The notes beneath the pieces are model-generated. The model did no database searches and was not told the DNA's origin. It worked only from the letters and a program-made list of their open reading frames with translations. A DNA stretch of 64,000 nucleotides from NCBI GenBank assembly GCA_016206505.1, contig JACQRJ010000036.1:365-64364 (forward strand). The letters run 5' to 3'. Positions 9,224-31,434 of the stretch are shown here, piece by piece. This DNA is from Candidatus Peregrinibacteria bacterium. Lineage in GTDB: Bacteria; Patescibacteriota; Gracilibacteria; UBA1369; LOWO2-01-FULL-3. Made by a program: the position numbers and the translations under genes. How positions within the stretch are numbered: the stretch's first letter is position 1; each line of letters opens with the position of its first letter.

Positions 9224-9321
9224 AAAGCCCGAGATATAGAAAATTCACACTTGAAAATAAAAGCTTGATAAAAGCGCAACATGTAGTAGCATTCATCCCC
9301 AGTATTGAATTACCGCACATC

Positions 9322-13729: not shown

Positions 13730-16700
13730 ATGGCAACAACCGGAAATCCAGACGCTACTGATCCTGACATAGAAGATCCTCTAGCGGCACCAACAAGGCC
13801 ACTACCGCTCATCAAGCCCACACAAGCCTTACCACTCAACGAACCCACACAACTTTTAGTCAAAAAGCCTAAAAATCCAGACGAAAATCCGAAAGGAACT
13901 GCAGATACAAAATTTCAGAAGGAATACCTTGCATCAAGCCCCGAAGCAATTCGGGAACCCGCCGGTCAAAAAGCCGCTTCACAAGCGGGCATCGAAAGAG
14001 ACGGCGAGCTAAAAGAAATGCCCGGAGCAATCCTGGACATTGAATTACGCCTCTCCTCTCATTTCAAAACAGATCAGTACCCAAAAAAAGCATTTGCCAT
14101 AGTTAAAAGTGCAATTGCACATTTTCAGGGAGCGTTACTTCATTTTATCCCGACGCCAAAGGGCTATTTGAGATGCCAATGCATCTTCCCAAACAGAGCC
14201 CAAGCGCACAACGCAGCAGTTTACATTCACCAGAACACTGATAACGACCCTGATCATCATGCACCCATAAAAAAAGCCAAATTCGGTCTTGCTCAAGATC
14301 AAAGCCACTTAGCAACCTGCAACGGTCATCTGCTTGTATTCGGAAACGCCGCCAGAATGGCCATGAAACTTCAACATGCAAATCCGGAAACGGCCGAAGT
14401 TCCGGTAGTGGCAACCTACGAACATTCGGCAGATACAGAAAAAGAAACAATCCTGGGTAATTCACTTAGGGAAGAAAAAATAGAGGAAAAGAAACCATTA
14501 CATTCCCGCGAAACAGAAAGGTCCAGAAATCACGCCCACGAAGCCGTACGCCTGCCAAATCCTGATTTACCGCAAGTAGCTTCCCGCGTTGAAATCCGCT
14601 TTCCAAGAAACCTTGCACAAAATCCGGCGGAAACATTAAAAATCGCCACCGGATTTATCGATGCCATCGCGCCTCACCCCATGTCAAAAGGCTCAAAGTA
14701 CAGCCCGACTCACGCAATTCTCACCGGCCAAATTCTGACTATCTATCTCCCTGAAGAACGCGCTCCGGGCAATTTAGGTGAAAGACTCGAAAGCATGGAA
14801 CAGGAAATCCGGAAAAACGGCTTGATCATAATTCTTTCCCACAGCCGATATTCAGCCGTTGCACTCGATGAAGATAATCATACATTTCAGGGAGCACTGC
14901 CGCCATCCGCAACTCTGGGGGAAGATCTTGATCTGGATACAGAAAAAGGAAGTGCCGGTATTTACCTTGATGATCATTTTAAAGAAGCGGCCAGCCACGA
15001 ACGCAATGCCTCGATAGCAGTTTTTGTTACTGAGACTAAAGCAAGTCTACAAGTGCCTAAAGCTGTACGCTTAACAGCTACCCAAAGAAAAAAAACAGGA
15101 CGGGACAGCGAACTTCACCACGAAAATCTCTACAAAGTCCAAAGAATAGAAATTGCCAAAGAAGCCGTAGTCAAAGGTAGATTTACAGTGGGACGTGAAA
15201 AAGAAATAGCAGACCTTAATGCGACATTGGAAGCGGTACGAGACGGAAAAACCGCAAAATTCACCATTATCAATGGTGAAGCCGGCATCGGCAAAACCAG
15301 ACATGCGGTAGACGCAATCCGTCTGGCCGAAGAAAAAGGCTACTGTTCAGTTTATTACAAAACGCCGGAAAACGGCAAGACGTCTTCACTTACCGGCGTG
15401 AGAAGAATGACCAAAAGTCTCCTGGCAAAACTTGGCGGCGACGCCGGAGAAACTTTCCGCGATTTACAATTTTTCAGCCTCGGAATAGTGCCTCCCGGTG
15501 AAATAGACGCCTACGGAAAAAGAGTCGAAGCTCTCAATCAAAATCAGGTTCTGGCCGCCGAAAGACTCACCGCACTGATTGTTCAGTGCGCACAGACCCG
15601 GCCGCTTCAGCTGATTCTGGACGACCTTCAATGGTTCGACGAATTATCAATCGCGATTTTAACAAGGGTAATACAGGAAATCCCTCAGGAAACTCCTTTG
15701 CACCTTGCACTTTTGGGCAGAAGCGGCGAAGAACCGATTCCGCAGGATCTTACCGATGCCATGTCCGCAAGAGCTGGACACTATCACGAAACTTCACTCA
15801 GAAGAATCGGCAACGCGGCGCAAATCAGAGCAGAATTACTCGAGGAAGAGCCTGAAATGCATGACCCCCAACTCCAAGATCGCATTGATCAAAAACGCTT
15901 CAAATTAACCAAAGATTACATTTACTCCAATCTTCCTGAAAATTGCGCGGATGCAGAAATCGCCGACGGCTTTGTGTGGAAAATCCTGGAAATATCCGAA
16001 GGATTGCCGATAGTAATCTCCGAAACGGTCGCACTGCTTTTGGAAGAAGGCAAAATAGAATTGAGAGGTTCAAGCATCTCTACGCCCAGTAACGCAGAAT
16101 TGGATACGATGAAGAAAGACAGCACAAGCGAAACATTGAGCACAATTATCCAGGCAAAATTTGATCGCTTAAGCGAAGATGAAAAAACGATTATTGATTA
16201 CCTTGTCGTACTGAGAGAAACTGATTTAAGGCTTTTTGCCGGACTGCTCAAGTATTTGAGACTTTCAGAAGAAAGAATCCGGCAATCCCTCAGCGCTTTA
16301 AGTCAAAAAGGACTGATTAGAACCAATCCGGTTGGTTTCACACACGATCTGATTCAAAAACAAAGAAGAGATCAGCTAAAGGATATTGGATCTCTTTCAC
16401 GCAAAGCAGCAGCCTGTTACTTGCCACTGGCCGCAAATCGCAGCCGCTTTGCAAATCTCATTTCTCCAAGCCAACTTTTTGAACTTCTGGAAATTGCTCT
16501 GGAAAATCCCGAAGAACATAGAATAAAAGTACGCACAAAATTACTGGAAGCACAAGTACCGCTTGGACTGGAAGCAGCCGATCACAGCCTCCAGGTTCAA
16601 AATCAATACAGAGCGCTACAAATCGTGGAAACACTTGAGTCACAACTGACCAGCGAATTTGCTCCCTATCTCTATCCGCCAAAATCAGAAGAACCCGATG

Positions 16701-18229
16701 CGGAAGCAAAAAAAACAGCCCTGGCACTAAATCTCAGTGAAATTCACCTACGAGCTGCGGAAGCCCACATCCGTCTCGGCCACAAAACCGAACCGGAAAG
16801 TGCTCTCACAAAATACGCCCGGCTATCTGCAAAAGCACCCGAGGCAAAAGTCCAGGAAGGCGAAAGAGGCTTTCGTTACAAAGTTCTGCGTCTAAAAGCC
16901 GCTTTTGCACAAAGATCCCGGGAAAAACTCGGAGAAGCGCTTACAGAATTGGAAGGCGCGCCCGAACTTGTCGCTTTAAGAACTGCCCTTAAAGAAGCTA
17001 CCGTTGTTCAAGACACAGGATTACAACCCCATGTCATGATCGCCTATGGAGAACTCATTATCGCAAAATTAAGACTTGCGGGAGCCAGACAAAGTCAGGA
17101 AGCACAGGAAGCATTGGATGCGGTTCTTCCGGAAGCGGAAAATATCATCGCAATGCTAAAAACGGATACAACATCTGCCGAAATTAAAGCTCTGCGAATT
17201 GACATCGAAAGAACAATCGCTATCAACGAAGCTCATATTTTCCGCAAACAAATTCGTGGCAACGTCGAAGATGCCTTATACATGGAAGAATTCACTACTG
17301 AGCAGCAAGCAAAAGCGGCAGAACTGGAACAAACACTGATCGGAATTTTGCAAACCTATCTTACAGACACACAATTGGTCAGAGATCCCCAAACTCTGGG
17401 CTTTCTGTACGAAAGAATAGTTGAAATGCAAATTATTCAAGACCATCGCGACGAAGCCAGAAAAACAACAGAAAGAGGTCTTCGTTTAAGCCACAACTGG
17501 GGCATTCCGGAAGCAGTCAGCGCTTTAAACATGCTTGCTGGCGATGAAAAGACAACACAGCAAATTGCCAAAATCGACCTTACACATATGGAAACCATCG
17601 ATTCTGCAAAACATTTTGACGAAGCACTGCTCATAGAAGCTCTGGAAAACTATACCCAGGGAATTTTGGCAATGGAAAGAATGGGAGCCACAAATGCCGT
17701 GCACATCCAAACCAATGTCGTAAACAGAACAACTTGCATGGCACTATATGCATTTTCAAAGCTTGCAAAAAATCCGGAATTTGACACCAGCAAAAGCAAT
17801 ACAGCAATGATAATGCGCATGCCAACAATCGAAACCGTACAAGAAATGGAAGCGTTAAAGGCACAAATCCGGGAAACCTGGAATGTGATGATTAGAGTTC
17901 TGTTACAATTAAGAGACAACTACAACCCTGCAAAACCTGCAAACGAGCCGCAAAACCAAGCATACTTGCAGGAGTTAAGCGGATTGGGACTGCTTTATAA
18001 AGCCGCGCGAAGAATAGGAATAAGCGACATTGCCATCCCGGATTTCATCGACACTTCAGAAATTTTATCCGAACGTCAATACTTACAACAAATTGACGAA
18101 AAACCACAAAAACCGCTATCACAAGCCGACAAAAAGTATCTCAAATTAAGAAAAGAAGGCATAGTAGCTCTTATACCTGGCGGCGAAGATACAACAATTT
18201 CTCTGGCAGACCTTGATGAATTGCTGTAA
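13730..18229 (+). CDS. Giant STAND/AAA_16-type NTPase (paralogue B), same architecture as paralogue A
   Basis: TVGREKEIADLNATLEAV...FTIINGEAGIGKTRHA (nt ~15275-15298). LQLILDDLQWFDELS. SEGLPIVISETVALL. Long helical tail. It is collinear with paralogue A from the N-terminal modules to the C-terminal LRKEGI motif. Confidence 0.85.
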   Translation: MATTGNPDATDPDIEDPLAAPTRPLPLIKPTQALPLNEPTQLLVKKPKNPDENPKGTADTKFQKEYLASSPEAIREPAGQKAASQAGIERDGELKEMPGAILDIELRLSSHFKTDQYPKKAFAIVKSAIAHFQGALLHFIPTPKGYLRCQCIFPNRAQAHNAAVYIHQNTDNDPDHHAPIKKAKFGLAQDQSHLATCNGHLLVFGNAARMAMKLQHANPETAEVPVVATYEHSADTEKETILGNSLREEKIEEKKPLHSRETERSRNHAHEAVRLPNPDLPQVASRVEIRFPRNLAQNPAETLKIATGFIDAIAPHPMSKGSKYSPTHAILTGQILTIYLPEERAPGNLGERLESMEQEIRKNGLIIILSHSRYSAVALDEDNHTFQGALPPSATLGEDLDLDTEKGSAGIYLDDHFKEAASHERNASIAVFVTETKASLQVPKAVRLTATQRKKTGRDSELHHENLYKVQRIEIAKEAVVKGRFTVGREKEIADLNATLEAVRDGKTAKFTIINGEAGIGKTRHAVDAIRLAEEKGYCSVYYKTPENGKTSSLTGVRRMTKSLLAKLGGDAGETFRDLQFFSLGIVPPGEIDAYGKRVEALNQNQVLAAERLTALIVQCAQTRPLQLILDDLQWFDELSIAILTRVIQEIPQETPLHLALLGRSGEEPIPQDLTDAMSARAGHYHETSLRRIGNAAQIRAELLEEEPEMHDPQLQDRIDQKRFKLTKDYIYSNLPENCADAEIADGFVWKILEISEGLPIVISETVALLLEEGKIELRGSSISTPSNAELDTMKKDSTSETLSTIIQAKFDRLSEDEKTIIDYLVVLRETDLRLFAGLLKYLRLSEERIRQSLSALSQKGLIRTNPVGFTHDLIQKQRRDQLKDIGSLSRKAAACYLPLAANRSRFANLISPSQLFELLEIALENPEEHRIKVRTKLLEAQVPLGLEAADHSLQVQNQYRALQIVETLESQLTSEFAPYLYPPKSEEPDAEAKKTALALNLSEIHLRAAEAHIRLGHKTEPESALTKYARLSAKAPEAKVQEGERGFRYKVLRLKAAFAQRSREKLGEALTELEGAPELVALRTALKEATVVQDTGLQPHVMIAYGELIIAKLRLAGARQSQEAQEALDAVLPEAENIIAMLKTDTTSAEIKALRIDIERTIAINEAHIFRKQIRGNVEDALYMEEFTTEQQAKAAELEQTLIGILQTYLTDTQLVRDPQTLGFLYERIVEMQIIQDHRDEARKTTERGLRLSHNWGIPEAVSALNMLAGDEKTTQQIAKIDLTHMETIDSAKHFDEALLIEALENYTQGILAMERMGATNAVHIQTNVVNRTTCMALYAFSKLAKNPEFDTSKSNTAMIMRMPTIETVQEMEALKAQIRETWNVMIRVLLQLRDNYNPAKPANEPQNQAYLQELSGLGLLYKAARRIGISDIAIPDFIDTSEILSERQYLQQIDEKPQKPLSQADKKYLKLRKEGIVALIPGGEDTTISLADLDELL

Positions 18230-18239
18230 TTTGCGGCTC

Positions 18240-19859
18240 ATGAAAAAATTATTTCAATTAACAACAATCGGCCTTTTTATCTTCCTGATGCCATTTGAAG
18301 CGATGGCATTTTACGAAGATGTTGCAGAAAATCATCAATACTACAATCCCATCAAAGCATTGTACGAACTTCAAAAACTGCCTGAAGACACAAATTTCAA
18401 ACCGGACGACAAACTTACCAACTCAAATTTCTACAAGCTTCTAAGCACTTTTGGAGGCACGAAAATTGCAACCGATGAAAATCTGAATCCTGCAAATTTT
18501 CCGCCAAAACATCGCATCCTCTCCGAAATGTTTTACTACCTTGGCATCGGCACCAATTATCTCTTTGATAAAGAAAATTTCTATTTCCTGGATTTGGACA
18601 AAAATTCACCCCTCTCCCCCATCGCCCAAAAAGCTTCAGAAATCGGCATTGTCGAAGACAAAGAAGATCAGCAATTTTTCAAAATGGCCCAACGCCTTAC
18701 AAATGCGCAGGCCGCCGACTATTTATACAAAATTTACCTCTACAAAAACCCCGATGCTCTGGAAGAAAAGCCCAATGCCATCAATATAATCACCATCACA
18801 GAAACCACGGAAGATACGCGGGAACTTGGCACTTTTGTCGATGTCTGGAACGTCTTAAAAAACTATTATTTTTACAAGGAAGAACTCGATGAAGAAGCGA
18901 TGATTTACGATGCCATAGAGGGCTTGCTCAAGACCGTACCCGATGATTACACCGGATTTAGCGAACCTTCCGAAGCGGAAGAATTTTTTGACAGTCTGGA
19001 AAATGAATTTGAAGGCATCGGCATTATGATCGAAATGGTCAATGAACAGGTCACAATCATCAGCCCCCTTGCCGATTCCCCAGCTCAAAAAGCCGGACTT
19101 CTGCCCAATGACATTATTTCAAAAGTTGACAATGAAAGTATCACCGGCCTAAATCTCGATGCTGTAGCCAAAAAAATCAAAGGCCCCGCACAAACTGTCG
19201 TAAAAATCACGGTTTTGAGAAATGAAAAAGAGCTCATTTTTGAAGTCACCAGACAAAAAATAACCCAGGAAGCCGTAACCGGCAAAATTATCAAGGAAAA
19301 TGGCAAAAAAATCGCCTATATCAAATTGACCACTTTTGGCCAAGATACGGCAAAAGAATTGGAAAAAACGGGCAAAGAACTTTTGCTCGACAATCCCAAA
19401 GGATTCATTCTCGATCTGCGCAACAATCCCGGCGGCTACCTCAACTCCGCCATCGAGATGGTCGGCCTGTTTTTGAAAGAAGAAAAAACAGTAGTAAAAG
19501 TCAAATCGGCAAGCGGCCTAACGGAAGAATATAAAAGCGCCGTCGATGGAACTCTTGCCGGACAAAAAATCGTCATCATTATCAACAAAGGCTCCGCTTC
19601 CGCTTCGGAAATCCTAGCCGGCGCGCTGCAAGATCATGAAATCGCGACATTAATCGGCACAATTTCTTTTGGCAAAGGCACCGTTCAAAACATCAAAAGC
19701 TACAAAGACGGCTCGATTTTCAAATACACTATGGCCAAATGGCTCACCCCAAAAGACCGCGACATCGATAAAATCGGTCTGACTCCGGACAAAATCATCG
19801 AAAACGACACTGCAACAACAGAAGACGAACAGCTAAAAGCGGCTTTGGCGGAGTTCTAA
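18240..19859 (+). CDS. ctpA: Carboxy-terminal processing protease (S41 family) with a PDZ domain and signal peptide
   Basis: Signal peptide MKKLFQLTTIGLFIFLMPFEAMA. PDZ-like segment GIGIMIEMVNEQVTIISPLADSPAQKAGLLPNDII. S41 motifs LDLRNNPGGYL and GSASASEILAGALQD. The track ORF starts at 18213; ATG 18240 avoids overlapping the upstream gene. Confidence 0.85.
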   Translation: MKKLFQLTTIGLFIFLMPFEAMAFYEDVAENHQYYNPIKALYELQKLPEDTNFKPDDKLTNSNFYKLLSTFGGTKIATDENLNPANFPPKHRILSEMFYYLGIGTNYLFDKENFYFLDLDKNSPLSPIAQKASEIGIVEDKEDQQFFKMAQRLTNAQAADYLYKIYLYKNPDALEEKPNAINIITITETTEDTRELGTFVDVWNVLKNYYFYKEELDEEAMIYDAIEGLLKTVPDDYTGFSEPSEAEEFFDSLENEFEGIGIMIEMVNEQVTIISPLADSPAQKAGLLPNDIISKVDNESITGLNLDAVAKKIKGPAQTVVKITVLRNEKELIFEVTRQKITQEAVTGKIIKENGKKIAYIKLTTFGQDTAKELEKTGKELLLDNPKGFILDLRNNPGGYLNSAIEMVGLFLKEEKTVVKVKSASGLTEEYKSAVDGTLAGQKIVIIINKGSASASEILAGALQDHEIATLIGTISFGKGTVQNIKSYKDGSIFKYTMAKWLTPKDRDIDKIGLTPDKIIENDTATTEDEQLKAALAEF

Positions 19860-22800
19860 GCATAAGCCGTATCTTTTGCGTCTCGATAACGCTCATAGAC
19901 AAAATTATAGACCTCGATCCCTTTAATGTCGCATTCCTGCTGTGAATAGGTTGGTTCCGGTAACGAATTGTAGAGAATATCGATAATTGTCGTTTTAACG
20001 CCTGCCCTTGCCGATTCTTTTTCTCGCCAATCAAGCACTAACTTTTCTTTTTTGAGTTTTGCCAATAATTCGTGAGAAGCCTTTCTAACTTTTTCAACTT
20101 CGTCAGGGTTCAGATTTTCCTTTAAGAGCAGGTCGAAAATTGCCAGTTCCTCCTCGCTCAAATTTTCTTTAACTGCTCGCTGTTCTTCTTTATCCAAACT
20201 CTTTGCCAAATCAACCAGATCATTCAAGAGTTGGTCGACATCGTGTGCTCCGCTGTTGTAAACCTGAAGTATTGCATTTAAACGATCCATGAAGCGCCCT
20301 CGCTTTTTATTGCGTTCCATCATCTCTTCTATTTTTTCTTCAAGCTCAGTTTTCATGCTCTCAGCTTGCAAATTCTTATTTTCCAGACCAGCAAAGAATT
20401 CATGGAGAGCATTGGCATCGAGACTACTCAAATCTTTAACGCGTTTATGTTGCGGGATGACATATTCGCCTGCCTGAATGGATTTATCGAGCAGGTCTTC
20501 CAAATCCTTTTGCACCTGTGAAACATCGATGCTTTCTCCAGTAACAAGACGAATCCGTTGAGCAATCGTACGAATAGCTGCTACCTGATCGTAATAATCT
20601 TCTGCGTCAGGTGCCGGCAATACAGACTGGTAGGCGCTTTGTAAATCACTCGCAAGGTTCAAAAATGCCTTTTTCTTCTCCGGTTGGCCGACAATGGTGT
20701 TTGCATATTTCTCTATCAAAAGCAATTTTTGCTCATTTGGAACCTTCAAGAGAACATTTATATCAATCTGCTCACCCTGCAAAAATTCTTTCACCGATTC
20801 GAGCAGGTTTTTTAATTGGCTCACCAGTTCATCTTTGCTCCGAATAATGTCGTTTTCATCGGCACCGTTGGCAGCATAGAGTGCAAGAGCTCGCTCAATG
20901 TTCTTGAACACGCCTATATAATCGACAATCAGTCCATTTTTCTTGCCCTCAGCTACACGATTGGCACGAGCGATGGTCTGCATGAGGGTGTGATTTTTTA
21001 GCGGTTTATCGAGGTACAGTGTTGAAAGGTTTGGCACATCAAATCCCGTCATCCACATGGCGCACACAAAAACGATGCGAAGATCACTGTCGGATTTCTT
21101 GAATTCCTCTTCAAGGTTCTCTTTCTGCATACGTTCACGCAATGGGCGCATATCAATGTCGAACGGTTCCAGATCGGCAATTTCGTTCTGGCTCTGGCTC
21201 ACCACGACGGCCATATCAACATCTTCATGTCGCTCGAGTTGTGCCTCTACCTTCGCCTGTCCCCTCTCATTTTGCGTTCTGGATAGATCCATGCGGAGTT
21301 TGGCCAAATAACGCTCCCATTCGGCCTTTACTTTGGCATACATCCGCACGGCTGTTTTTTTGTCTACAGAAACCACCATCGCCTTGCCGTCGTATCCCCG
21401 TCCGACAAAATGCTCCACAATATCACGCGCAATCGCATTCAAGCGATCTTCACGTGTTACAAGATGGTAAAAAGTTGAAAACTCCTGCTCCAATTTTTCT
21501 TCCGCATCTTCATTCAGATCATAAAATTCCATGATGTTGTTCATCTCTTTCTCCAACGAGTCATTTACATTTTTAAGGCGCGGCACACGGTTTTCGTAAA
21601 ATAACGGCACGGTCGCACCATCAGCTACTGATTGGCCGAAATTATAGATCGATACATATTCACCGAAAGTCTCCCGCGTTTTTTCTTCACCGTTGGCCAA
21701 AAGTGGCGTGCCGGTAAAACCCATAAACGAAGCATTGGGCAGGGCTTTTCGCATATTTTGCGCCATGCGATCATACTGTGTGCGATGCGCTTCATCGGTC
21801 ATGAGAATAATGTCATTGCGTGTTGAAATAGCTCCTTCAATATCCTGAAATTTCTGAATGGTGGTAAAAATCTGGCGATGATCCTGCGCCAATAGCTCAT
21901 GCAAATGAACGATACTTTCTGCTTTTACCTCTTTTTCATAAACCGCACCTACACTGGCAAATTCCTTGTAGGCCTGACGATCCAAAGCTCCGCGATCAGT
22001 CACAATCACAAAAGTAAAATTGCCCGTCAGTTTACGCAGCACTTTTTGGGAGAGATAGACCATCGAGTACGATTTGCCAGACCCCTGCGTATGCCAAAAC
22101 ACACCGAGCTTTCCTTCGTTCTCTTTGCGATGAATCACTTTCTCAAAGGCTTTATTGACACCAAAATATTGGAAGTATCGTGGCACAATCTTTTTCGTTT
22201 CGCCTTTGGATTCATCGAACAAAATATAGTTTTCAAAAATATCCAACAGGCGCGATTTATCGCATATACCGCTGATCATTGTGGCAAGGTCGGTCTTTGC
22301 AGTATCTTCTTCACTCTCGGCCTTTTTCCACTCGTTAAAAAACTCATAGGGCGAAGTAAGTGAGCCAAATCTATTCTCTATACCGTTGGAAATCATAACT
22401 CCCATGTTGTACCAGAAGAGTTTTGGGATGGTGTCTTTGTAATCACGAAGATTATCTTTATAGGCATCCACAAGGCTTTTATGTGAAGCCTTCAGCTCCA
22501 AAAGCATCAGTGGAATGCCATTCACAAACAGCACTACATCAGGGCGACGTGTATGCATTTCACCAGTGATCCAGAGTTGGGATACACAAAGAAAGTGATT
22601 ATTTTCCGGATTTTTAAAATCAAAAAATCGCACCCTTTCAGTCTCGCTCACACCGCTTTCATTTGCCGAAATTACGCTTCCACCGTCGCGCAAAATCCTA
22701 TAAATCTCATGATTGGCATTCACAAGCGAAAGATGTGACCGATCGCGTGTAAGTTCGTCCATTGCCATGGTGAGCAATGGTTCCTGTAGTGTTGGATTGA

Positions 22801-22981
22801 GCTTTTGAAGCGCAGGCAACAAAAACTTTTTTAGTATCACTTCTCCTCGATGTTCACGGCCAAGCTTGGCATCATCTTCGTCTTTGTAGGCGTTGATATG
22901 GCATGTCTTATCATTCCACAGCTTTTTGATGAGGCTGATGACGGTTTGTTCGACGAGTTGGTCTTCTGTGAATTGGTTCAT
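19856..22981 (-). CDS. hsdR: Type I restriction enzyme R subunit
   Basis: 1041 aa. N-terminal nuclease region (RPDVVLFVNGIPLMLLELK), SF2 helicase motifs (HTQGSGKS, MTDEAHRTQ, GFTGTP, MQTIARANR) and a C-terminal HsdR-type helical domain. Confidence 0.95.
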   Translation of the reverse strand: MNQFTEDQLVEQTVISLIKKLWNDKTCHINAYKDEDDAKLGREHRGEVILKKFLLPALQKLNPTLQEPLLTMAMDELTRDRSHLSLVNANHEIYRILRDGGSVISANESGVSETERVRFFDFKNPENNHFLCVSQLWITGEMHTRRPDVVLFVNGIPLMLLELKASHKSLVDAYKDNLRDYKDTIPKLFWYNMGVMISNGIENRFGSLTSPYEFFNEWKKAESEEDTAKTDLATMISGICDKSRLLDIFENYILFDESKGETKKIVPRYFQYFGVNKAFEKVIHRKENEGKLGVFWHTQGSGKSYSMVYLSQKVLRKLTGNFTFVIVTDRGALDRQAYKEFASVGAVYEKEVKAESIVHLHELLAQDHRQIFTTIQKFQDIEGAISTRNDIILMTDEAHRTQYDRMAQNMRKALPNASFMGFTGTPLLANGEEKTRETFGEYVSIYNFGQSVADGATVPLFYENRVPRLKNVNDSLEKEMNNIMEFYDLNEDAEEKLEQEFSTFYHLVTREDRLNAIARDIVEHFVGRGYDGKAMVVSVDKKTAVRMYAKVKAEWERYLAKLRMDLSRTQNERGQAKVEAQLERHEDVDMAVVVSQSQNEIADLEPFDIDMRPLRERMQKENLEEEFKKSDSDLRIVFVCAMWMTGFDVPNLSTLYLDKPLKNHTLMQTIARANRVAEGKKNGLIVDYIGVFKNIERALALYAANGADENDIIRSKDELVSQLKNLLESVKEFLQGEQIDINVLLKVPNEQKLLLIEKYANTIVGQPEKKKAFLNLASDLQSAYQSVLPAPDAEDYYDQVAAIRTIAQRIRLVTGESIDVSQVQKDLEDLLDKSIQAGEYVIPQHKRVKDLSSLDANALHEFFAGLENKNLQAESMKTELEEKIEEMMERNKKRGRFMDRLNAILQVYNSGAHDVDQLLNDLVDLAKSLDKEEQRAVKENLSEEELAIFDLLLKENLNPDEVEKVRKASHELLAKLKKEKLVLDWREKESARAGVKTTIIDILYNSLPEPTYSQQECDIKGIEVYNFVYERYRDAKDTAYA

Positions 22982-22985
22982 AGAT

Positions 22986-24485
22986 TTATTGAGTTATTTC
23001 GGGCAAATATAACTTTAAAATTTCTATCAAGCTTTGCCTTTTATCAGAAGACAAAAAACTGAGCACTAAATTTTTGTACCCATTTTTCGAGAACTCTATT
23101 TTACCCTGTATTTCATTAACAAGGCCTTTATGTGGATATGCCTTCAGTATTTCTGTAATTTCAGCATCATGCTCTGGTAAGATTACTGTTGCCAGTGCGT
23201 CTAATTCAGAGAAAATAGCATTTTTAAAATTATCATAGTCTTCGGTACTTTTTACCGCTCCAAATTTTTCACCTAAATGCCTGTGCATGCGATTTTTTGA
23301 GGCAGCAAAAACTACTTTTTCTTTATTTGCTGCATAAATTTTCTTTATTTCTGCGATGATTTCGTCTTTTTTATCTGTCTTCGACAAATGGGTACAAACC
23401 ATTTCAACTATTTCTGGTACAAGGAATAGATTCTCAACTTCATTGAGTGTGATGCTGAAAACTCCTGCTTCCTTTAACGCCGCTAGCTGTTCATCGATAC
23501 GAAAATCTTTATCCATGAGTCCATAAACTTTTTTATCATGCAGGTGATTATGGGTTTTAAGACCCTTCACTGCCTCAATAACTTTTTCGCAAGAACCGCA
23601 GGGTATAACTGTAAAGTTTTCGTAGTATGCCTGATAGATTTGAATATCGAGAGAGCCCTTATTTCCTTCAACAAATAATATTGGCTTTCTACTACCTAAC
23701 ATTTCAAGAAAAAGATTTTCTGGCACTACTTCATTAGGATCAATCTCTTTCCAATCCCATAAATTATTCTTGAAACTCTGAATCCAGATGAGCTTGCTTG
23801 AAGGCTTACTGACGGCAAAATCAAGGTCGTGAGTTATGTAAATAAAAGTACAATCATTCCTATGTTCTTCTAACTTATTCCATAAGCGCACCATTAAAGC
23901 TTTGTGTAAGTGCAACTCCGGCTCGTCGATAATGAAAATGCAATTTTTCTCAGCAAGGAGAATTTGAGAGATCAAATATAATCCAACTTTTTCACCATCA
24001 CTCATCTGCGTGCCCGAAAAATCATCAGCCCGAACTTTGTCTTTTTCAAGCTTCAGGGAGCGATAAGGAAAAATTAAATTCCACACTTCTATGACTTTCT
24101 CTTTTGTTGAGGTAGGAGTTTCCGCTTTTGTTATTTGCCCTTTCGTATTAATAGTGTTAATAACGTCTTCATTCCTTTTCGACTCTTCGGCAAACAAAGA
24201 AATTAGCACTTGCGGATAATCATTTTGAGGCTGGATGGACTCTTGATTCTTATAACTGCCTTTCAATTGGCTGCTGGCTGTCTCATAATCCTGTTTTTGC
24301 ACTACTTCATTCAGTTGCAAATATCTTTGTGCTGAAATTCTTTTGGTAGGAGTATTTATCTGCTCAAGTTTAGAACCAAGACGTGATTTACCGGCTCCGT
24401 TAGCTCCAACGAGGACTAAATTTTTCTCTATCTTGAGAGCTTCATTCCCACTCTTTCCTGATGATGGAATCTGTATGTCTTTCAT
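22986..24485 (-). CDS. Fused ABC-type ATPase + Toprim (DUF4435-like) protein, OLD/PARIS(AriA-AriB)-like, embedded in the Type I R-M operon
   Basis: Walker A LVGANGAGKS, signature-like QMSDGEK, Walker B IFIIDEPELHLH and H-loop ITHD. The C-terminal half has PILFVEGNKGSLD (Toprim Glu) and GLMDKDF (DxD). Confidence 0.8.
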   Translation of the reverse strand: MKDIQIPSSGKSGNEALKIEKNLVLVGANGAGKSRLGSKLEQINTPTKRISAQRYLQLNEVVQKQDYETASSQLKGSYKNQESIQPQNDYPQVLISLFAEESKRNEDVINTINTKGQITKAETPTSTKEKVIEVWNLIFPYRSLKLEKDKVRADDFSGTQMSDGEKVGLYLISQILLAEKNCIFIIDEPELHLHKALMVRLWNKLEEHRNDCTFIYITHDLDFAVSKPSSKLIWIQSFKNNLWDWKEIDPNEVVPENLFLEMLGSRKPILFVEGNKGSLDIQIYQAYYENFTVIPCGSCEKVIEAVKGLKTHNHLHDKKVYGLMDKDFRIDEQLAALKEAGVFSITLNEVENLFLVPEIVEMVCTHLSKTDKKDEIIAEIKKIYAANKEKVVFAASKNRMHRHLGEKFGAVKSTEDYDNFKNAIFSELDALATVILPEHDAEITEILKAYPHKGLVNEIQGKIEFSKNGYKNLVLSFLSSDKRQSLIEILKLYLPEITQ

Positions 24486-24487
24486 GG

Positions 24488-25720
24488 TTATGCTTTTAAA
24501 GTTCGTTTGCCAGTGACCAATTGGGGAACAAGAAGGTCGCGCATCTTACAGAGATTTTGATTTTCCTTTTGTAAGATCGCTATCTGCTGAAGTAAATTTG
24601 CTGCCAGCTTTTCATACCGTTCCAACACGTATTCAGTTGGTAGAATCATTTTTGCATCAACAACAGTGTCTCTGCGCAAATGTTGCATAGTGGCACCAAC
24701 GGCTTGTTTGCTCAATTTTTCAACCAGTCTTGTCAGTGCATAAAAAACAAATGATCTATAAAGATCTAACTTTGGAGAGACTAAAAATAAGTGCTGATTG
24801 AGAAGTGCATGACCAGAATTCCAGATATTTACGAGCAATGTAGCTGACCAAGAAAAAATGATATCTCCATTTTTAATACGATATTTTTCAGGGATATTTT
24901 CACCATCATTCCTTGGTGTCTTCTCGAGTATTCCTGACCGCAATTCCGGTATCTTTATTATTGGCAAACCACTATCCCCTAAGTCCTTAGGTTTGAATGG
25001 ATATCCGTTAACAAAACTAGCCATTGTCCCAATTGGAACAATCTGCCATCCCTCTGGAATCATGCCGTACTCAGTGCCACTGTCGACCATTTTTGTTGCC
25101 TCATGGCCAGGGAATTTGAATTTCACAAACCACTCTATATAGAGAAGTTGCGCCATTCCTTCCAATCCCTTGATGCGTTTTTGGTTGTTTTCGATGAGGT
25201 CGTCGTAGGCAGAAAGAACTGAGGAAATATGTTTTTGCATTTCAATATCTGGCAGTTTAATTTCAAAATTTTCAATATCACTTTTTGTTAGAGCCTCCCG
25301 TGTAGCCCCAGTTGTTGCTAAACCATATAATGCTCGTTTATACAGAGGGCTTACCAAAGCGTATTTAAGGTATTTTCCAGAAAGGTTTTTTCTATCTGCC
25401 CGAATTATTGAAACATGCTGATTAACCCGAGCAGGAATAAGATTGTCAGGGACGGAAGTGCACCTGCATACAGAAGCTCCTGTGATATTTAGCAGAACAT
25501 CATCTTTTTCAACTATAACATTGGCTAATTGTTTAGCCTGAGAATCATCGATAAAGGCCAAATTATCGTAAATAAAATTCAAATCATATATATTCAAGCT
25601 TCTGATCAAAGGTGTTCCTTCGTGATGATAAGCACCTTTTCCGCCACGCGGAGTAGCGCCACTGCCAATTTTAGTGGTTACATCCTTCAGTTTTTTTATA
25701 TTCCAAGTTGCCATAAACAT
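24488..25720 (-). CDS. hsdS: Type I restriction-modification specificity subunit
   Basis: 410 aa with two target-recognition halves. These are separated by the conserved helical spacer LIENNQKRIKGLEGMAQLLYIEWFVKF and end with LQKENQNLCKMRDLLVPQLVTGK. Confidence 0.9.
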   Translation of the reverse strand: MFMATWNIKKLKDVTTKIGSGATPRGGKGAYHHEGTPLIRSLNIYDLNFIYDNLAFIDDSQAKQLANVIVEKDDVLLNITGASVCRCTSVPDNLIPARVNQHVSIIRADRKNLSGKYLKYALVSPLYKRALYGLATTGATREALTKSDIENFEIKLPDIEMQKHISSVLSAYDDLIENNQKRIKGLEGMAQLLYIEWFVKFKFPGHEATKMVDSGTEYGMIPEGWQIVPIGTMASFVNGYPFKPKDLGDSGLPIIKIPELRSGILEKTPRNDGENIPEKYRIKNGDIIFSWSATLLVNIWNSGHALLNQHLFLVSPKLDLYRSFVFYALTRLVEKLSKQAVGATMQHLRRDTVVDAKMILPTEYVLERYEKLAANLLQQIAILQKENQNLCKMRDLLVPQLVTGKRTLKA

Positions 25721-25727
25721 ATAAAAA

Positions 25728-26009
25728 TTATTTCTTCATTCCCTTAAGCACCTTCTTAATCCTCTTCACATACTCCTCATTTTCACCAGTCTCCGTATAC
25801 CGATTCACCGGATCGCTACAAACAGCGCACTTGCCCCTAAGAATAACGTCGTTCAAATCATTCACAGTAGTCTTAAAATCAACAATCGTCACGACTTCAT
25901 TGCAGGTATGACAAAGGCAATTTGGTACGATTTTCTCCACAAAAAAATCCCAGTCTTTCCCCCAGATGGTTTTGAGTTGCGGTAACGTGAGTGGCATTTC
26001 TTTTTTCAT
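25728..26009 (-). CDS. Small zinc-ribbon protein (93 aa) inside the R-M operon
   Basis: Cys pattern CLCHTC...x25...CAVC. It is tightly packed, 3 nt after the rhuM stop and 7 nt before the hsdS start. Confidence 0.6.
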   Translation of the reverse strand: MKKEMPLTLPQLKTIWGKDWDFFVEKIVPNCLCHTCNEVVTIVDFKTTVNDLNDVILRGKCAVCSDPVNRYTETGENEEYVKRIKKVLKGMKK

Positions 26010-26012
26010 AGG

Positions 26013-27071
26013 TTATTTTTTCTTAGGCTGTTTTAAAGATTTCTTTGCTTCCGTTTCCAACTTCTTCACCTCCCGATCAAAGTCGGAAAGATAATTTTCA
26101 TCCTGAATAACACGATATTTTTCATATTCCTTTAACGCAAGCGACTCCGCGACCTCATGACTGATTTTCCCTAAGTCTCCCAATATTTGTCGCTCGTTAA
26201 ATTTTAAAAACGCATCCAGCTTTGATACCCAGTCTTTCATATACATAATAATCCCGCGTTTAGCCTGCATCTCTGCAAAATCAAGATACATGGTCACGAT
26301 CCTATTGAGGTGATCGAGTTCTTTTTCATTGAGATAGTTTTTAGCAATCACAACATCGGACTCCCTGATGCTGCCCTTTGGAGAATTTTTCCAAACAGTC
26401 AGTCCCATGTGCATCTTCGTGCTATCCGCTCTTTCATATATAATTTCAGCGGCAGTTTTGCCCGTCATGGCAAAATGAAGTTTATTTTGCACCGTTGCGA
26501 AAAATTGTTTGGTAATGTCGTTGTCGGGAGAATAGTCTGCACTGCATTGCGCGTATATGTCAGTTATCTTCTGATACATACGCCTTTCGCTTGATCTTAT
26601 GTCCCTTATTCGAGCCAGTTGCTCTTCAAAATAGTCATGCCCAAAAATAGTGTTTGGATTTTTGAGCCGCTCATCATCCATGGTAAACCCTTTGATGATG
26701 TACTCCTTGAGTCTTTCCGTTGCCCAAATACGAAACTGCGTAGCCTGCCCTGAATTTACGCGGTATCCAACGGAAATAATGGCATCCAGATTATAAAATT
26801 TCGTTTTATATTGCTTCCCGTCTTCCGCAGTTATTTCCAAAATGGAAATAACTGAATCTTCCTGCAGCTCTCCACTTTCAAAAATATTTGAGAGATGCTT
26901 GTTGATAGCAGGAATTCCGACGTCAAAAAGTTCGGCCATTCTTTTTTGCGTAAGCCAAATATTTTCATCTTTCAAGAAAATCTCGACTTTTACTTTTCCA
27001 TTTGGACTGGTGTAAAGCAAAAACTCAGTAAAGCTGTTATTTGGGACTATTTGTTGATTCTTCTTTTTCAT
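26013..27071 (-). CDS. rhuM: RhuM-family protein (Virulence_RhuM)
   Basis: 352 aa. FLLYTSPNGKVKVEIFLKDENIWLTQKRMAELFDVGIPAINKHLSNIF...YNLDAIISVGYRVNSGQATQFRIWAT...RSSERRMYQKITDIY is the characteristic RhuM pattern. Confidence 0.85.
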   Translation of the reverse strand: MKKKNQQIVPNNSFTEFLLYTSPNGKVKVEIFLKDENIWLTQKRMAELFDVGIPAINKHLSNIFESGELQEDSVISILEITAEDGKQYKTKFYNLDAIISVGYRVNSGQATQFRIWATERLKEYIIKGFTMDDERLKNPNTIFGHDYFEEQLARIRDIRSSERRMYQKITDIYAQCSADYSPDNDITKQFFATVQNKLHFAMTGKTAAEIIYERADSTKMHMGLTVWKNSPKGSIRESDVVIAKNYLNEKELDHLNRIVTMYLDFAEMQAKRGIIMYMKDWVSKLDAFLKFNERQILGDLGKISHEVAESLALKEYEKYRVIQDENYLSDFDREVKKLETEAKKSLKQPKKK

Positions 27072-27089
27072 AATAAATTACGTTAAATA

Positions 27090-27266
27090 TTATTTTTTAT
27101 TTACCGTGGTGGCATCAATAAATTCAAAGCTGTTCATTAAAAACCACTCGCATGGATCAAGCAATTTTTCACACAACGGACACTGGTAGTCAACGTTGCC
27201 AACCTGAATTGCATTTTTATAATCATGTCGGCAAATTTTTTTCTTATTTTTGAGGCGTTTAGTCAT
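27090..27266 (-). CDS. Small Cys-rich (putative zinc-finger) protein, 58 aa, inside the R-M operon
   Basis: MTKRLKNKKKICRHDYKNAIQVGNVDYQCPLCEKLLDPCEW... The track ORF (27090..27326) overlaps the hsdM 3' end; the internal ATG at 27266 lies 13 nt after the hsdM stop. Confidence 0.45.
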   Translation of the reverse strand: MTKRLKNKKKICRHDYKNAIQVGNVDYQCPLCEKLLDPCEWFLMNSFEFIDATTVNKK

Positions 27267-27279
27267 AATTTTAGATAAG

Positions 27280-28857
27280 CTATATAATCTTCTTCCAATC
27301 CTCCATGATCTTTTGTTCAAGCCCATGAGCCTCTTTTGTAAGGGAGGTGAATTCGCCCATAAGCTCTTTCATGCGTGCGTCAAAATCCACATCGCTTAAC
27401 TCTTTTTCGACAATCTCCACATAACGGCCAGGATTGAGAGAATAGTCGTTTGCACGCACATCATCGAGCGTCACAACTTTGCATCGACCTTTGATGTCTT
27501 CGTATTTTTCATAGCCTTCTTCACTTCGATAACGCCGTACAATGGCTGCAATTTCTTGTATCTGCGCATCCGTCCATGTGCTGTGTGCTCGGTCAATTTC
27601 CGTGAAAATATCTTGCGCATTAATGAAGAGGATTTTATTTTGCCTATCAGTACCATGTTTTCGCTTATCAAAAAACCAGAGCGTGCATGAAAGCGTAGCG
27701 TTTAAAAACATGTTTGTACCAACCGAGACAATGACGTCCACCGTGCCAGCCTCAATCATTTTTTTGCGGATTTCTTTCTCGGCATTTCCTGCATCACTGG
27801 CTGAATTGGCCATAACAAAGCCCGCGCGCCCTTGCTTCGAAAGTGCGCTCGCGAACATCTGCATCCAGAGATAGTTGGCGTTGCTGATTTCATTTTTGCC
27901 CGTAAGCGGCAGTCCAAGGTAATAACGCGGATCACCGTGCAAACGCGCGGGATCAATGGTCATTTGCCCGTTTTTATCTTTTCCTTTCACGTTAAAAGGC
28001 GGATTTGCCAGTACAAAATCAAATTTCCCCACACTCTCAAACGGGTCTTCATAAAAACTGTTCACCAGTTGAATTTTTCCGGAAAGGCCGTGAATTGCGA
28101 GGTTCATCTTGGCAACACGCATTGTTGAGTCTGTTTTTTCTTGGCCATAAATAGCCACTTCTTCCATAACCTGTTTTGAATTTTTCAAATGTTCGGCAAC
28201 AAAGCGAGCTGACTGGACAAACATGCCTCCACTACCGCAAGCAGGATCGAAAATACGGCCATGGTAAGGCTCAATAACCTCTACAAGAAGCTTTACGATT
28301 GATTGCGGCGTAAAGAACTCCCCACCTTTGGAACCTTCGGCTCGTGCAAAGTTACCAAGAAAATATTCGTAAATTTCTCCAAAAGCATCCCCCTCGATAT
28401 CGTCGGGAATTTGGTTAAAGTTTTTGAGCAGAGTTATGAGGATTCTGCTGTTTTCGTCTGCCTTTTTGGAGAGTTCGGTGTAATCCTGTGGCAATACGCC
28501 TGCAAGGTCTCGATTTTCGGCTTCAATCGCTTTCATGGCCTCATTAATAGCTTTTCCGATGTTTTCAGCCTCAGAAAGGCTCATAAGGTGCGAATACGTC
28601 GCGGTCTCCGGAATGTAGAGCACGCCCTTTGATTTATAGTCATCGGGCATTACGAAACGCACACGGGTCGACTGCGTTTGATTTCTCTCTTTTTCTATTT
28701 GTACTTTTGCTCTTTTAAAACGGACATCGGCAAACTTAAGGAAAATAAGTCCCAAAATCGGTTCACTAATTTCATTAAGCTTGAGGCTTCCATTGGCGCG
28801 AAGTTGCTCAGCTGCAGCCCAGAGTTTTTCTTCAAGTTGTTTGCGATGAATTGGCAT
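27280..28857 (-). CDS. hsdM: Type I restriction-modification N6-adenine DNA methyltransferase subunit
   Basis: 525 aa. HsdM N-terminal helix bundle (LWAAAEQLRANGSLK...ILGLIFLKF), SAM motif IFDPACGSGGMF and catalytic FDFVLANPPFN. Confidence 0.95.
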   Translation of the reverse strand: MPIHRKQLEEKLWAAAEQLRANGSLKLNEISEPILGLIFLKFADVRFKRAKVQIEKERNQTQSTRVRFVMPDDYKSKGVLYIPETATYSHLMSLSEAENIGKAINEAMKAIEAENRDLAGVLPQDYTELSKKADENSRILITLLKNFNQIPDDIEGDAFGEIYEYFLGNFARAEGSKGGEFFTPQSIVKLLVEVIEPYHGRIFDPACGSGGMFVQSARFVAEHLKNSKQVMEEVAIYGQEKTDSTMRVAKMNLAIHGLSGKIQLVNSFYEDPFESVGKFDFVLANPPFNVKGKDKNGQMTIDPARLHGDPRYYLGLPLTGKNEISNANYLWMQMFASALSKQGRAGFVMANSASDAGNAEKEIRKKMIEAGTVDVIVSVGTNMFLNATLSCTLWFFDKRKHGTDRQNKILFINAQDIFTEIDRAHSTWTDAQIQEIAAIVRRYRSEEGYEKYEDIKGRCKVVTLDDVRANDYSLNPGRYVEIVEKELSDVDFDARMKELMGEFTSLTKEAHGLEQKIMEDWKKII

Positions 28858-28932: not shown

Positions 28933-31434
28933 CTACACCTTCTTCTCCACCGCCACCTGTTTCTGCGCCAAAAGCTCTTCGGGATTTGTGGTGACGATTT
29001 TGTCTTCCGTATAAGAAGCGATTACCTGAATCGCCACATGCTTCAAGCCGGCAAAGAAAAGCCCCTGCCCCACTCCGCTATTCAACAAAACATACTTTTC
29101 ACCTTCCGTCAGATTGAAAATCTTGGCCAAAGTATCCACGGAAGAAGGCGCCTGCTTCAGCAGCAATTGAATCGAAGAATTGGTCACAATCGGCTTACCA
29201 TAGTCACTTTTCACGAAATCTTCCACGTCTTGAGTGATGGTAGAAACGCCCAAATAATACTTTCTTGCCCTTTTCACCAAACCAAACAAAAACTTCGCAC
29301 TATCCTCATGCTGCATCATCGTCCAGGCCTCATCTATGACCAGTATGCGCTTTTTAAGCTCGCTTCTCACCCTGTTCCAGATATAATTCAAAACGATATG
29401 CATGGCAATCGGCCTCAATTCATCTTCCAAATCCCTGATACAAAAAACCATCATGCCGCTTGATAGATCGACATTGGTCGGCTTGTTGAAAATTCCGGCA
29501 TAAGAACCGGTGGTAAATTTCGAAATGCGCTGCACCAAAGAAGCCGCACCATCCATGGAATTCAAAATTTGATGCAAATCTTCCATCGTCGGCGGCGCAA
29601 ATTTGGTCGGATCAACAATATCCATTGTAATGCCCTTCATCGCATACACATCAATCAAAGCTTTGTCCATCAAAGCTTCCTCTTCAGGACTCATGCCCTT
29701 CACCATCAACTTCAAAAGCCCCTGCAAAGTTATGACATTCGATCGCAAAATATCACCCGCCTGATACTCCTCACCCTCCACAGGTTTCGGCAGATCAAAA
29801 GGATTGATACGACGATCACTGTTCAAACTCAAACGCAGATAACTTCCTCCCACAGTCGTAGCCAAGGCTTCATATTCGTTTTCCGGATCGATCACAATCA
29901 CATCGGTTCCCATCATCATCAGGCGCAAAATTTCCAATTTCACCGCATAAGATTTACCTGCACCGGATTTGGCAAAAACCACACTATTGGCATTTTCCAG
30001 CGCAAAACGATCAAAAATAATCAAACTGTCATTATGCCTGTTCAATCCATACAAAATTCCACGATCCGAAGTCAGATCCGAAGAAGTAAACGGAAAAGTT
30101 GTGGAAAGCGGCCCTGTATTCATATTGCGAATGACATAAAGCTCATCCAGACATTGCGGAATTGTCGCATTGAATCCATGTTCCGCCTGCAATTGACATC
30201 TCTTTGTCATTACAAGTTTTCCAGCCAATAAACTTTCCAGCTGCTTGGCAACACGTTCGAGTTTTTTCTCACCATCCGCATAAACCGTAAAATAAAGTGC
30301 AAATTGGAAAAATTTTTCCTGGCCTCTCTGAATCTGCGTTCGCAACCTTTCAGCATCCTCCAAAGCAGTCTCCAGTCCCGGATCCCTCACCTGTCCCTTA
30401 TCGGCCATAATATGCAAACTGGATTGCATCTGCGCGACCTTTTTCTTCAGCGTCTTCATGATCTTTTCGGAATCAATCGGATAGATAAATTGGGAAATAT
30501 CCATCGTCACATCAAAATTAATAATCGGCGCCAGCCAGTTTGTATCCAGATAGCGCGGATAAGCGTAAACATAAAAAGATCTGGCATATTTGCCATCCAT
30601 TTTCAGACTGTCATAACGAACATCCAGCGAAGACGGCGCAATCATATCTTTCACAGTCGCCAAGCCTTCATGATAAATTTTTTCCGCTTCAATAAATTCC
30701 TTGCGTTCCTGTGGGGTCAAAAGAGATTCTTTACCTGCTTTTGCAGATCCCTTGGCATCAGTAAGTTCACCAGCCTTGCCAGCAGCCTCTGCCAAAGCCA
30801 GGTCGCCAGTCGGAATGGCGCCATCCAAAACCACCGTTTTTTTCTTCCCAAAAGGCAAAAGCGCTTTCAATTTATCGAAAAAAGACATTTTAGCGGTAGC
30901 ACCCTGTGTAGCACTTTTTGCTTCGGGAACGGGCGTCGAAGAAAAAATATTCTCGCCTTTGGCAAGTTTTTTGCCGGTTTTTGGATCATATCCCGCTTTC
31001 ATCAATTTTTCCGCAGCCTCAAGATCGACTTTATGCACAACTTCCAGAGAAGGAGTGATTTCAATATAAGAATTCGGATCAATTCCCAGCTCGGTCGAAG
31101 TAGGCTTATCGGCTTTCAGATTCACCACAGGAGCACTTGCAGACACAGCGTCCACAAGAGCTGCGGGCACAGCCTCTGCAAGACCTGCCGATGCAGCTTT
31201 CAAATCTACAATTTGATCTTTACCGCCTACCTCAGCATTTGTGGCAAGCTCACTTGAAGCATCCGCAAGCCATCCCGGAGTTGCAATTTCTTCATCTTTC
31301 GGCTTGGCAAAAATTCGCCCCGTCCCAACGATACCCTGCACCGCCTCAGTAGCCTGCACGGCCGCAGGAGCTTGCACATTAGCTACAACCTGCCCTGCGC
31401 CTAACTGCGTATTTTGATTTTGATCTTCCGCCAT
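28933..31434 (-). CDS. VirB4/TraC-like type IV secretion ATPase with a ~250-aa low-complexity N-terminal extension
   Basis: SVVFAKSGAGKSYAVKLEILR (Walker A), ILVIDEAWTMMQHEDSAKFLF (Walker B), YYLGVSTITQDVEDF, and upstream YARSFYVYAYPRYLDTNWLAPII, which is typical of Gram-positive-type VirB4. Confidence 0.85.
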   Translation of the reverse strand: MAEDQNQNTQLGAGQVVANVQAPAAVQATEAVQGIVGTGRIFAKPKDEEIATPGWLADASSELATNAEVGGKDQIVDLKAASAGLAEAVPAALVDAVSASAPVVNLKADKPTSTELGIDPNSYIEITPSLEVVHKVDLEAAEKLMKAGYDPKTGKKLAKGENIFSSTPVPEAKSATQGATAKMSFFDKLKALLPFGKKKTVVLDGAIPTGDLALAEAAGKAGELTDAKGSAKAGKESLLTPQERKEFIEAEKIYHEGLATVKDMIAPSSLDVRYDSLKMDGKYARSFYVYAYPRYLDTNWLAPIINFDVTMDISQFIYPIDSEKIMKTLKKKVAQMQSSLHIMADKGQVRDPGLETALEDAERLRTQIQRGQEKFFQFALYFTVYADGEKKLERVAKQLESLLAGKLVMTKRCQLQAEHGFNATIPQCLDELYVIRNMNTGPLSTTFPFTSSDLTSDRGILYGLNRHNDSLIIFDRFALENANSVVFAKSGAGKSYAVKLEILRLMMMGTDVIVIDPENEYEALATTVGGSYLRLSLNSDRRINPFDLPKPVEGEEYQAGDILRSNVITLQGLLKLMVKGMSPEEEALMDKALIDVYAMKGITMDIVDPTKFAPPTMEDLHQILNSMDGAASLVQRISKFTTGSYAGIFNKPTNVDLSSGMMVFCIRDLEDELRPIAMHIVLNYIWNRVRSELKKRILVIDEAWTMMQHEDSAKFLFGLVKRARKYYLGVSTITQDVEDFVKSDYGKPIVTNSSIQLLLKQAPSSVDTLAKIFNLTEGEKYVLLNSGVGQGLFFAGLKHVAIQVIASYTEDKIVTTNPEELLAQKQVAVEKKV

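Follow-up and report, generated by a model that had tools for sequence, protein, structure and literature searches.

The 64,000-nucleotide stretch of a Candidatus Peregrinibacteria contig analyzed here (the window) carries, with hsdS on one side and hsdR on the other inside a Type I restriction-modification (R-M) operon, a single gene that encodes both components of a PARIS-type defense system, the ATPase AriA and the effector AriB, as one fused AriAB chain. Our reading of the locus as a whole, to which we assign a probability of about 0.62, is that this fused PARIS gene would serve the surrounding restriction system as a second line of defense, by abortive infection. The locus alone is not news, as a fused PARIS within a Type I R-M operon is of an already described type that DefenseFinder or PADLOC would call automatically. 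What the comparison with its relatives adds, and what we consider the most useful lead, is the recurrent embedding of single-chain AriAB in R-M operons of all of Types I, II and III; the fusion in addition poses a question of mechanism. The gene and its two halves are as follows.

22986-24485, minus strand: fused AriAB (single-gene PARIS, AAA_21+DUF4435 class), 499 amino acids, from its open reading frame (ORF), PADLOC and Pfam.
23721-24485, minus strand: ABC-type ATPase half, approximately residues 1-255, from Pfam, PADLOC, profile alignment to PtuA chains and Foldseek.
23049-23690, minus strand: DUF4435 / putative Toprim nuclease half, residues 266-479, from Pfam, PADLOC, invariant columns and an AlphaFold2 (AF2) model.

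The interval 22986-24485 corresponds to exactly one ORF with an ATG start, read from the minus strand, which the initial annotation had left unstated; its plus-strand translation is riddled with stops. All the motifs quoted in that annotation were located in this ORF: GANGAGKS is the Walker A motif (residues 27-34), MSDGEK the ABC signature (161-166), IIDEPELHLH the Walker B motif with the catalytic Glu (D187/E188) and ITHD the H-loop (H219), followed in the C-terminal half by FVEGNKGSLD (E273, D280) and MDKDF (D325/D327). An alignment of 36 homologues with identities down to 36% revealed K33, D187, E188, H219, E273, D280, D325, D327 and N352 to be invariant, and E351 to be conserved in at least 90% of the sequences.

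Searches with hidden Markov models (HMMs) provided the family assignment. The PADLOC model for fused AriAB (PDLC02982) matched the protein with E=4.5e-111 (370 bits), residues 7-498 aligning with model positions 32-568 of 570. Pfam placed DUF4435 (PF14491) on residues 266-479 (E=7.7e-16; 59 bits, the cut-off being 27; aligned to model positions 1-230 of 238) and AAA_21 on the N-terminal half (37.7 bits, likewise with a cut-off of 27, which is the threshold of Rousset 2022 too), where SMC_N and ABC_tran matched too. Together with the invariant residues, these matches lie well outside what chance would produce. As the PADLOC match runs end to end and both Pfam domains score above their cut-offs, these profile searches establish the gene as a single-chain member of the PARIS family, the single-gene form reported by Rousset 2022 and Burman 2024, in agreement with the fused AriA-AriB protein proposed in the initial annotation. 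The expectation voiced there that fused AriAB variants exist is likewise correct: single-gene AriA-AriB fusions were described together with HMMs for AAA_15+DUF4435 and AAA_21+DUF4435 fusions (Rousset 2022, PMC9122126) and were noted again later (Burman 2024, PMC11464382; PMC12409363). The other PADLOC models scored far lower, with mad3 (2.5e-14) as the next best family and weaker scores for AriB (1.2e-11), ATPase-Toprim_I-B (5.9e-11, residues 162-398), AbiLi (5.6e-7, on the ATPase half) and GajA (1.1e-6, about 50 residues, 159-210). None of the NCBIfam models fitted the protein, every score lying far under its cut-off. A homologue search returned 4755 matches, the nearest of which (93-60% identity) came mostly from metagenome bins of Patescibacteria, the candidate phyla radiation (CPR).

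The stated placement between hsdS and hsdR was borne out. The remaining genes of the operon are listed below.

27280-28857, minus strand: hsdM, Type I methyltransferase, 525 amino acids, first gene of the operon (PADLOC MTase_I, 1.2e-190).
26013-27071, minus strand: RhuM-family gene between hsdM and hsdS (Virulence_RhuM, 2.7e-111; PADLOC PDC-S05, 2.8e-151).
25728-26009, minus strand: small ORF of 93 amino acids between RhuM and hsdS (sub-threshold DUF5679, E=1.7e-4, 22 bits against 27).
24488-25720, minus strand: hsdS, Type I specificity subunit, 410 amino acids (Methylase_S; PADLOC Specificity_I, 4.5e-116).
19856-22981, minus strand: hsdR, Type I restriction subunit, 1041 amino acids (HSDR_N, SWI2_SNF2, T1RH-like_C; PADLOC REase_I, 3e-186).

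All these genes lie on the minus strand in the order hsdM-RhuM-orf-hsdS-ariAB-hsdR, and the host system is complete, with hsdM, hsdS and hsdR full length, in one orientation and with all the expected Pfam domains. Only 2 nucleotides separate the hsdS stop codon from the ATG of ariAB, and 4 nucleotides the ariAB stop codon from the ATG of hsdR, so that the genes are packed as one operon. Judged from this layout, ariAB is co-transcribed with hsdS and hsdR, and is probably also translationally coupled with them. A scan of the operon for promoters and terminators yielded fewer sites than in shuffled controls and was hence uninformative. The RhuM gene corresponds to PDC-S05, an embedded defense candidate of Payne et al., so the operon contains two embedded accessory genes, one between hsdM and hsdS and the other, AriAB, between hsdS and hsdR.

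The same order was followed in relatives of the protein. A contig scan with the single AriAB protein detected 4 loci, and a metagenome scan with an alignment was much richer; the surveyed sample, a non-random one, was composed of the best 80 tblastn matches plus hand-chosen loci, among which 46 relatives were evaluable, being non-redundant and having at least 1 kb of flank on each side. The arrangement hsdM-[variable gene(s)]-hsdS-ariAB-hsdR recurs in relatives with 78%, 73% and 67% identity, with gaps of a few nucleotides or 4-nucleotide overlaps, and again in further metagenome contigs (L017-L020); the order hsdS-ariAB-hsdR was also present in one relative that is only 41% identical (L014). 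In this last locus, HsdM, RhuM and HsdR are 80%, 73% and 75% identical to those of the window, compared to 41% for AriAB (8001-9557) and 32% for HsdS, so that AriAB has diverged about as far as HsdS. Such a low value for AriAB amid HsdM, RhuM and HsdR proteins of 73-80% identity suggests that alleles of the embedded gene are swapped or that it evolves very rapidly. Conservation calculated per segment located the divergence of AriAB mainly in the insert of the ATPase half (residues 61-155) and in residues 361-440, which suggests exchange of a cassette or rapid change of putative sensing and recognition surfaces. We read this divergence as the mark of an arms race, in favor of the second-line reading.

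The association extends to other R-M types. In or beside R-M systems were 17 of the 46 evaluable relatives (6 of Type I, 3 of Type II and 8 of Type III), a raw fraction given without a null expectation for an average defense gene. The Type II cases follow an NgoPII endonuclease and a C5 methylase (L021) or an N6_N4 methylase and an HNH endonuclease (L002), both in close relatives of the window gene, or a C5 methylase and a SacI endonuclease in a Bacteroides bin (L003), and one further relative lies within a different Type I system (L063). In the Type III cases, AriAB is located between mod (N6_N4_Mtase) and res (ResIII), as in L058 (6188-12226) and L078 (2619-8706) and also in L004, L079, L082, L086, L093 and L094; these proteins are 32-35% identical to that of the window, form a monophyletic clade and come from sources that include gut metagenomes and a Ruminococcus bin. 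No description of the mod-AriAB-res arrangement was found in the literature searched. In a neighbor-joining tree the R-M-linked loci fell in several separate branches, comprising a Type I clade that also encloses the Type II loci L002 and L021, a second clade made up of the Type III loci, and L063 and L003, each elsewhere.

From this distribution a broader proposition can be drawn, which we hold only tentatively and consider rather doubtful in its full form: single-chain AriAB may be a "restriction guardian" of general kind. Operons of Type I (hsdS-ariAB-hsdR), Type III (mod-ariAB-res) and Type II would have acquired it several times over and on separate occasions, and it would be coupled functionally to the host R-M system and activated without effector release, its sensor regions being exchanged, or changing, at the pace of the specificity domains of HsdS.

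Other relatives stood alone, whether on islands with an integrase, within a prophage-like region, on plasmids (60 records) or in a temperate Oenococcus phage. On the Paraburkholderia sabiae plasmid pPs24235_1 (L096, 3366-7641), a gene pair encoding an AAA ATPase and a DUF4435 protein is followed by a 573-amino-acid fused AriAB homologue; as the pair lies directly before the fused gene, two-gene and fused PARIS-like forms stand in tandem in one island. On plasmids of about 50-60 kb from Campylobacter jejuni and C. coli (H10-H24), the homologue matches only residues 13-363 (about 70%) at about 38% identity, and in NZ_CP017877.1 the match spans a pair of features, annotated as AAA family ATPase and as DUF4435 protein. 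The Campylobacter plasmid homologues may represent family members that are shorter or split.

The ATPase half was examined by profile and fold searches. Its Walker A (G27-S34), Q-loop (Q53), signature (S162-K166), Walker B (D187/E188) and H-loop (H219) residues make the N-terminal ABC-type ATPase look catalytically competent, and a variable helical insert occupies residues 61-155. A search of the Protein Data Bank (PDB) with the AriAB sequence produced nothing at E<=0.01, and the family profile reached ATPase heads only, among them PtuA at 1e-6 and E. coli AriA (8ux9_B) at 0.048. A full AF2 model was built on the 36-sequence alignment, with a mean predicted local distance difference test (pLDDT) of 85.5. 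Foldseek comparison of this model with the PDB gave PtuA, the ATPase of Septu and retron systems, as best match (5e-6), followed by GajA (8x5i, 4.5e-5) and the heads of Rad50, UvrA and SMC, with TM-scores of about 0.25 and with matches confined to the ATPase, which identifies the N-terminal half as an ABC/SMC-type ATPase. The ATPase is a compact head of AAA_21 type, and by sequence profile and predicted fold its nearest solved structures are PtuA chains rather than E. coli AriA. PtuA proteins differ from AriAB in partnering a separate HNH nuclease, PtuB, and in having no DUF4435.

In the C-terminal half, the conserved acidic residues E273, D280, D325, D327 and E351 occur in the same order as E26, D30, D88, E90 and E122 of AriB, which are characteristic of two-metal-binding Toprim domains (Burman 2024, PMC11464382). 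An AF2 model of this half alone (pLDDT 91) exhibited a beta-alpha-beta-alpha-beta-alpha-beta core followed by a helical bundle, with E273 directly after strand 1 and D325-x-D327 directly after strand 3, so the predicted core topology is that expected for Toprim. The helical region at residues 361-440 is the most variable part. The Toprim assignment, as first suggested from the motifs, is backed by membership of DUF4435, by the pattern of acidic residues and by the predicted topology; the fold search gave no confirmation, as no significant Toprim match was returned by Foldseek.

How such a protein could work is best considered against PARIS of E. coli B185, in which the AriA hexamer sequesters AriB; the anti-restriction protein Ocr triggers the system, and AriB is freed from the hexamer and cleaves tRNA-Lys (PMC11464382; PMC12409363). 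The window protein resembles that system in that an ABC ATPase is paired with a DUF4435 (putative Toprim) effector and in the order of the acidic residues of the AriB active site. Among single-gene fusions (the PARIS 'merge' classes of DefenseFinder and AriAB PDLC02982 of PADLOC), it matches the PADLOC model over its full length. It differs from the E. coli system in having an AAA_21 ATPase barely related to AriA and in being one chain. As ATPase and effector are covalently joined, release is impossible, and activation would have to proceed by a change in conformation or oligomeric state, nearer to OLD, GajA or PrrC than to the release of AriB. We infer that the variable insert would allow the ATPase half to keep the nuclease half inactive until a cue tied to restriction evasion (for instance a DNA mimic of the Ocr/ArdA kind, or some other protein of the phage) shifts the state of the ATPase; the putative Toprim domains might then dimerize and cut tRNA or another nucleic acid, halting translation and phage growth. 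The choice of anti-restriction proteins as candidate cue for AriAB follows the analogy with E. coli PARIS. Placement within an R-M operon has precedents, as defense genes embedded in Type I operons are well known, among them PrrC, RloAB (Deep 2024) and DarTG2, the last between hsdS and hsdR. Payne et al. 2024 catalogued thousands of embedded genes and proposed that an embedded PARIS could fire once Ocr inhibits the host system.

Several observations weigh against the view of AriAB as a back-up module for its host restriction system. About 60% of the evaluable relatives, in a sample that is non-random, lie away from R-M systems, and E. coli PARIS functions without any R-M system, so that co-location need not imply functional coupling. 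The ATPase half, with about 255 residues compared to the 464 of AriA, has no room for the whole set of AriA insertions, and overall sequence similarity to the characterized E. coli AriA and AriB is marginal, nearly undetectable by the searches used. Foldseek searches of the PDB and BFVD with the C-terminal model gave no significant match to Toprim or AriB, the best rows, with E of about 0.07, being folds of CheY-like and Rossmann type, and the C-terminal family profile produced no relevant match in the PDB and failed to reach solved AriB. A genuine AriB-like protein of a two-gene system, from a Paraburkholderia plasmid, aligned to the C-terminal profile (hhalign) only in the region of the DxD and E-N motifs (E=0.058) and itself failed to match solved AriB, which indicates that DUF4435 is too divergent for such bridging. 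Finally, no experimental study of a fused AriAB was found in the searchable literature, where 'PARIS_II_merge' appears only in genome surveys.

Among the alternatives, the one that survives best, unlikely as we judge it, is a guard of the PrrC kind, in which physical contact with the Type I enzyme (HsdM2S or HsdR) would keep the protein latent, and the protein would fire when the complex is inhibited, without itself sensing the phage protein. In the EcoprrI Type IC locus, prrC is described from this very position, with hsdS and hsdR on either side, spacing is tight and synteny conserved, and PrrC also unites in one chain an NTPase head of ABC type with a nuclease at the C terminus, which cleaves tRNA-Lys, fitting the concept of a back-up fired when restriction is disabled. 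However, the C-terminal half here is DUF4435 (putative Toprim), unrelated to the anticodon-nuclease domain of PrrC. In addition, the Type II neighbors in L002 and L021, the Type III sister clade and the many solitary relatives fit poorly with a specific protein lock, and the E. coli PARIS requires no R-M system. An identity as PrrC or RloC was rejected, as the C-terminal half is DUF4435 and no such model appeared among the Pfam matches or the best 25 of 46 PADLOC matches.

Less probable still is a DNase of the OLD or Gabija type, in which the fused protein would nick or degrade phage DNA or the ends made by restriction, as an additional nuclease beside HsdR and not as a tRNase. The domain order is that of OLD and GajA, likewise single-chain ATPase-Toprim proteins for which conformational activation is probable, and the fold match to GajA and the PADLOC match to ATPase-Toprim_I-B cited above point in this direction. 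The "OLD/GajA-like" label of the initial annotation thus holds at the level of architecture, but not by HMM, where the GajA match is confined to some 50 residues at E=1.1e-6, against 4.5e-111 for AriAB. The Foldseek matches were carried by the ATPase head, Pfam gave no OLD-type Toprim match, the putative Toprim subfamily here being DUF4435, and the operon contains no GajB-like or UvrD-like helicase partner. Moreover, the sole DUF4435 protein characterized so far is a tRNase (PMC11464382; PMC12409363).

Slightly behind this comes the possibility, improbable in our view, of a passenger or addiction cassette, for which the hsdS-hsdR junction would be merely a permissive hot spot occupied by an independent module of toxin-antitoxin (TA) kind, traveling with or stabilizing the R-M system with no cross-talk. 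The same slot does hold many unrelated cassettes, such as DarTG2 or an ATPase and RNA-binding pair, thousands of embedded families having been reported; the slot between hsdM and hsdS is variable too (RhuM, KilA-N or hypothetical genes), and Deep et al. 2024 treated PARIS as the equivalent of a type II TA system. Against this, independent recruitment into three mechanistically different R-M types, together with retention of the gene in relatives of 67-78% identity with tight and sometimes overlapping junctions, suggests selection for co-expression. Other pairs of an ABC ATPase and a Toprim-like protein, RloA/RloB of Campylobacter Type I loci and AbiL (AbiLi/AbiLii), resemble AriAB in composition; they are two-gene systems, and the window protein gave no Pfam match to RloB.

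An ordinary ABC-transporter ATPase, as suggested by the JGI name of homologues ('ABC-type cobalamin/Fe3+-siderophores transport system ATPase subunit') and by weak matches to ABC_tran and transporter NCBIfam models, is effectively refuted by the Pfam, PADLOC and NCBIfam results, the last far under cut-offs, and fits neither the acidic residues of DUF4435, the missing permease or binding-protein partner, nor the R-M context.

A MADS system was also considered and rejected. MAD6, MAD7 and MAD8 are mandatory in such systems (Maestri et al. preprint), and no match to mad6 or mad7 was found in the 18 proteins around the locus, where a canonical HsdR is present; MADS models gave only weak partial matches on generic domains, to mad3 (the value given above), mad2, mad5 and mad8.

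Some further features of the surroundings deserve mention. The presence nearby of gyrA, chorismate synthase and an S41 peptidase points to a chromosomal location, and the GyrA of the window shows 100% identity to an NCBI protein assigned to a Candidatus Peregrinibacteria bacterium. Between hsdM and hsdS, a RhuM gene recurs in L011, L014 and L018, whereas L006 and L009 have KilA-N or hypothetical genes there; the RhuM gene of L002 is found directly downstream of AriAB. At the position of the 93-amino-acid ORF a gene was also called in the Logan contig L005. A 78-amino-acid ORF without family assignment (27090-27326, minus strand) overlaps the 3' end of hsdM, and in an identical Logan contig a 58-amino-acid gene was called inside that span. 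Directly upstream of hsdM and on the same strand is an 833-amino-acid TraG/VirB4-like P-loop ATPase (28933-31434, minus strand; Pfam P-loop_TraG, 2.8e-24; weak PADLOC mad8, 4.8e-20). Just past hsdR, two adjacent large proteins of 1355 and 1499 amino acids (9265-13332 and 13730-18229, plus strand) contain AAA_16/STAND-like NTPase domains, the first with a TPR match as well; PADLOC produced only a marginal mad8 match to the first (E=9.5e-4), and both might function in signaling or defense.

With this locus, a PARIS-class system is documented in a genome of the Peregrinibacteria, within the CPR, a group where identified defense systems are few (PMC12366544). That fused AriAB has repeatedly become part of R-M operons, be they of Type I, II or III, is the pattern to expect if restriction is backed up by PARIS-like sensors, an idea that, in the literature searched, has been raised only as a hypothesis (Payne 2024). 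As covalent fusion rules out the AriB-release mechanism of E. coli PARIS, the AriAB family offers a natural test case for how ATPase-Toprim defense proteins are switched on.

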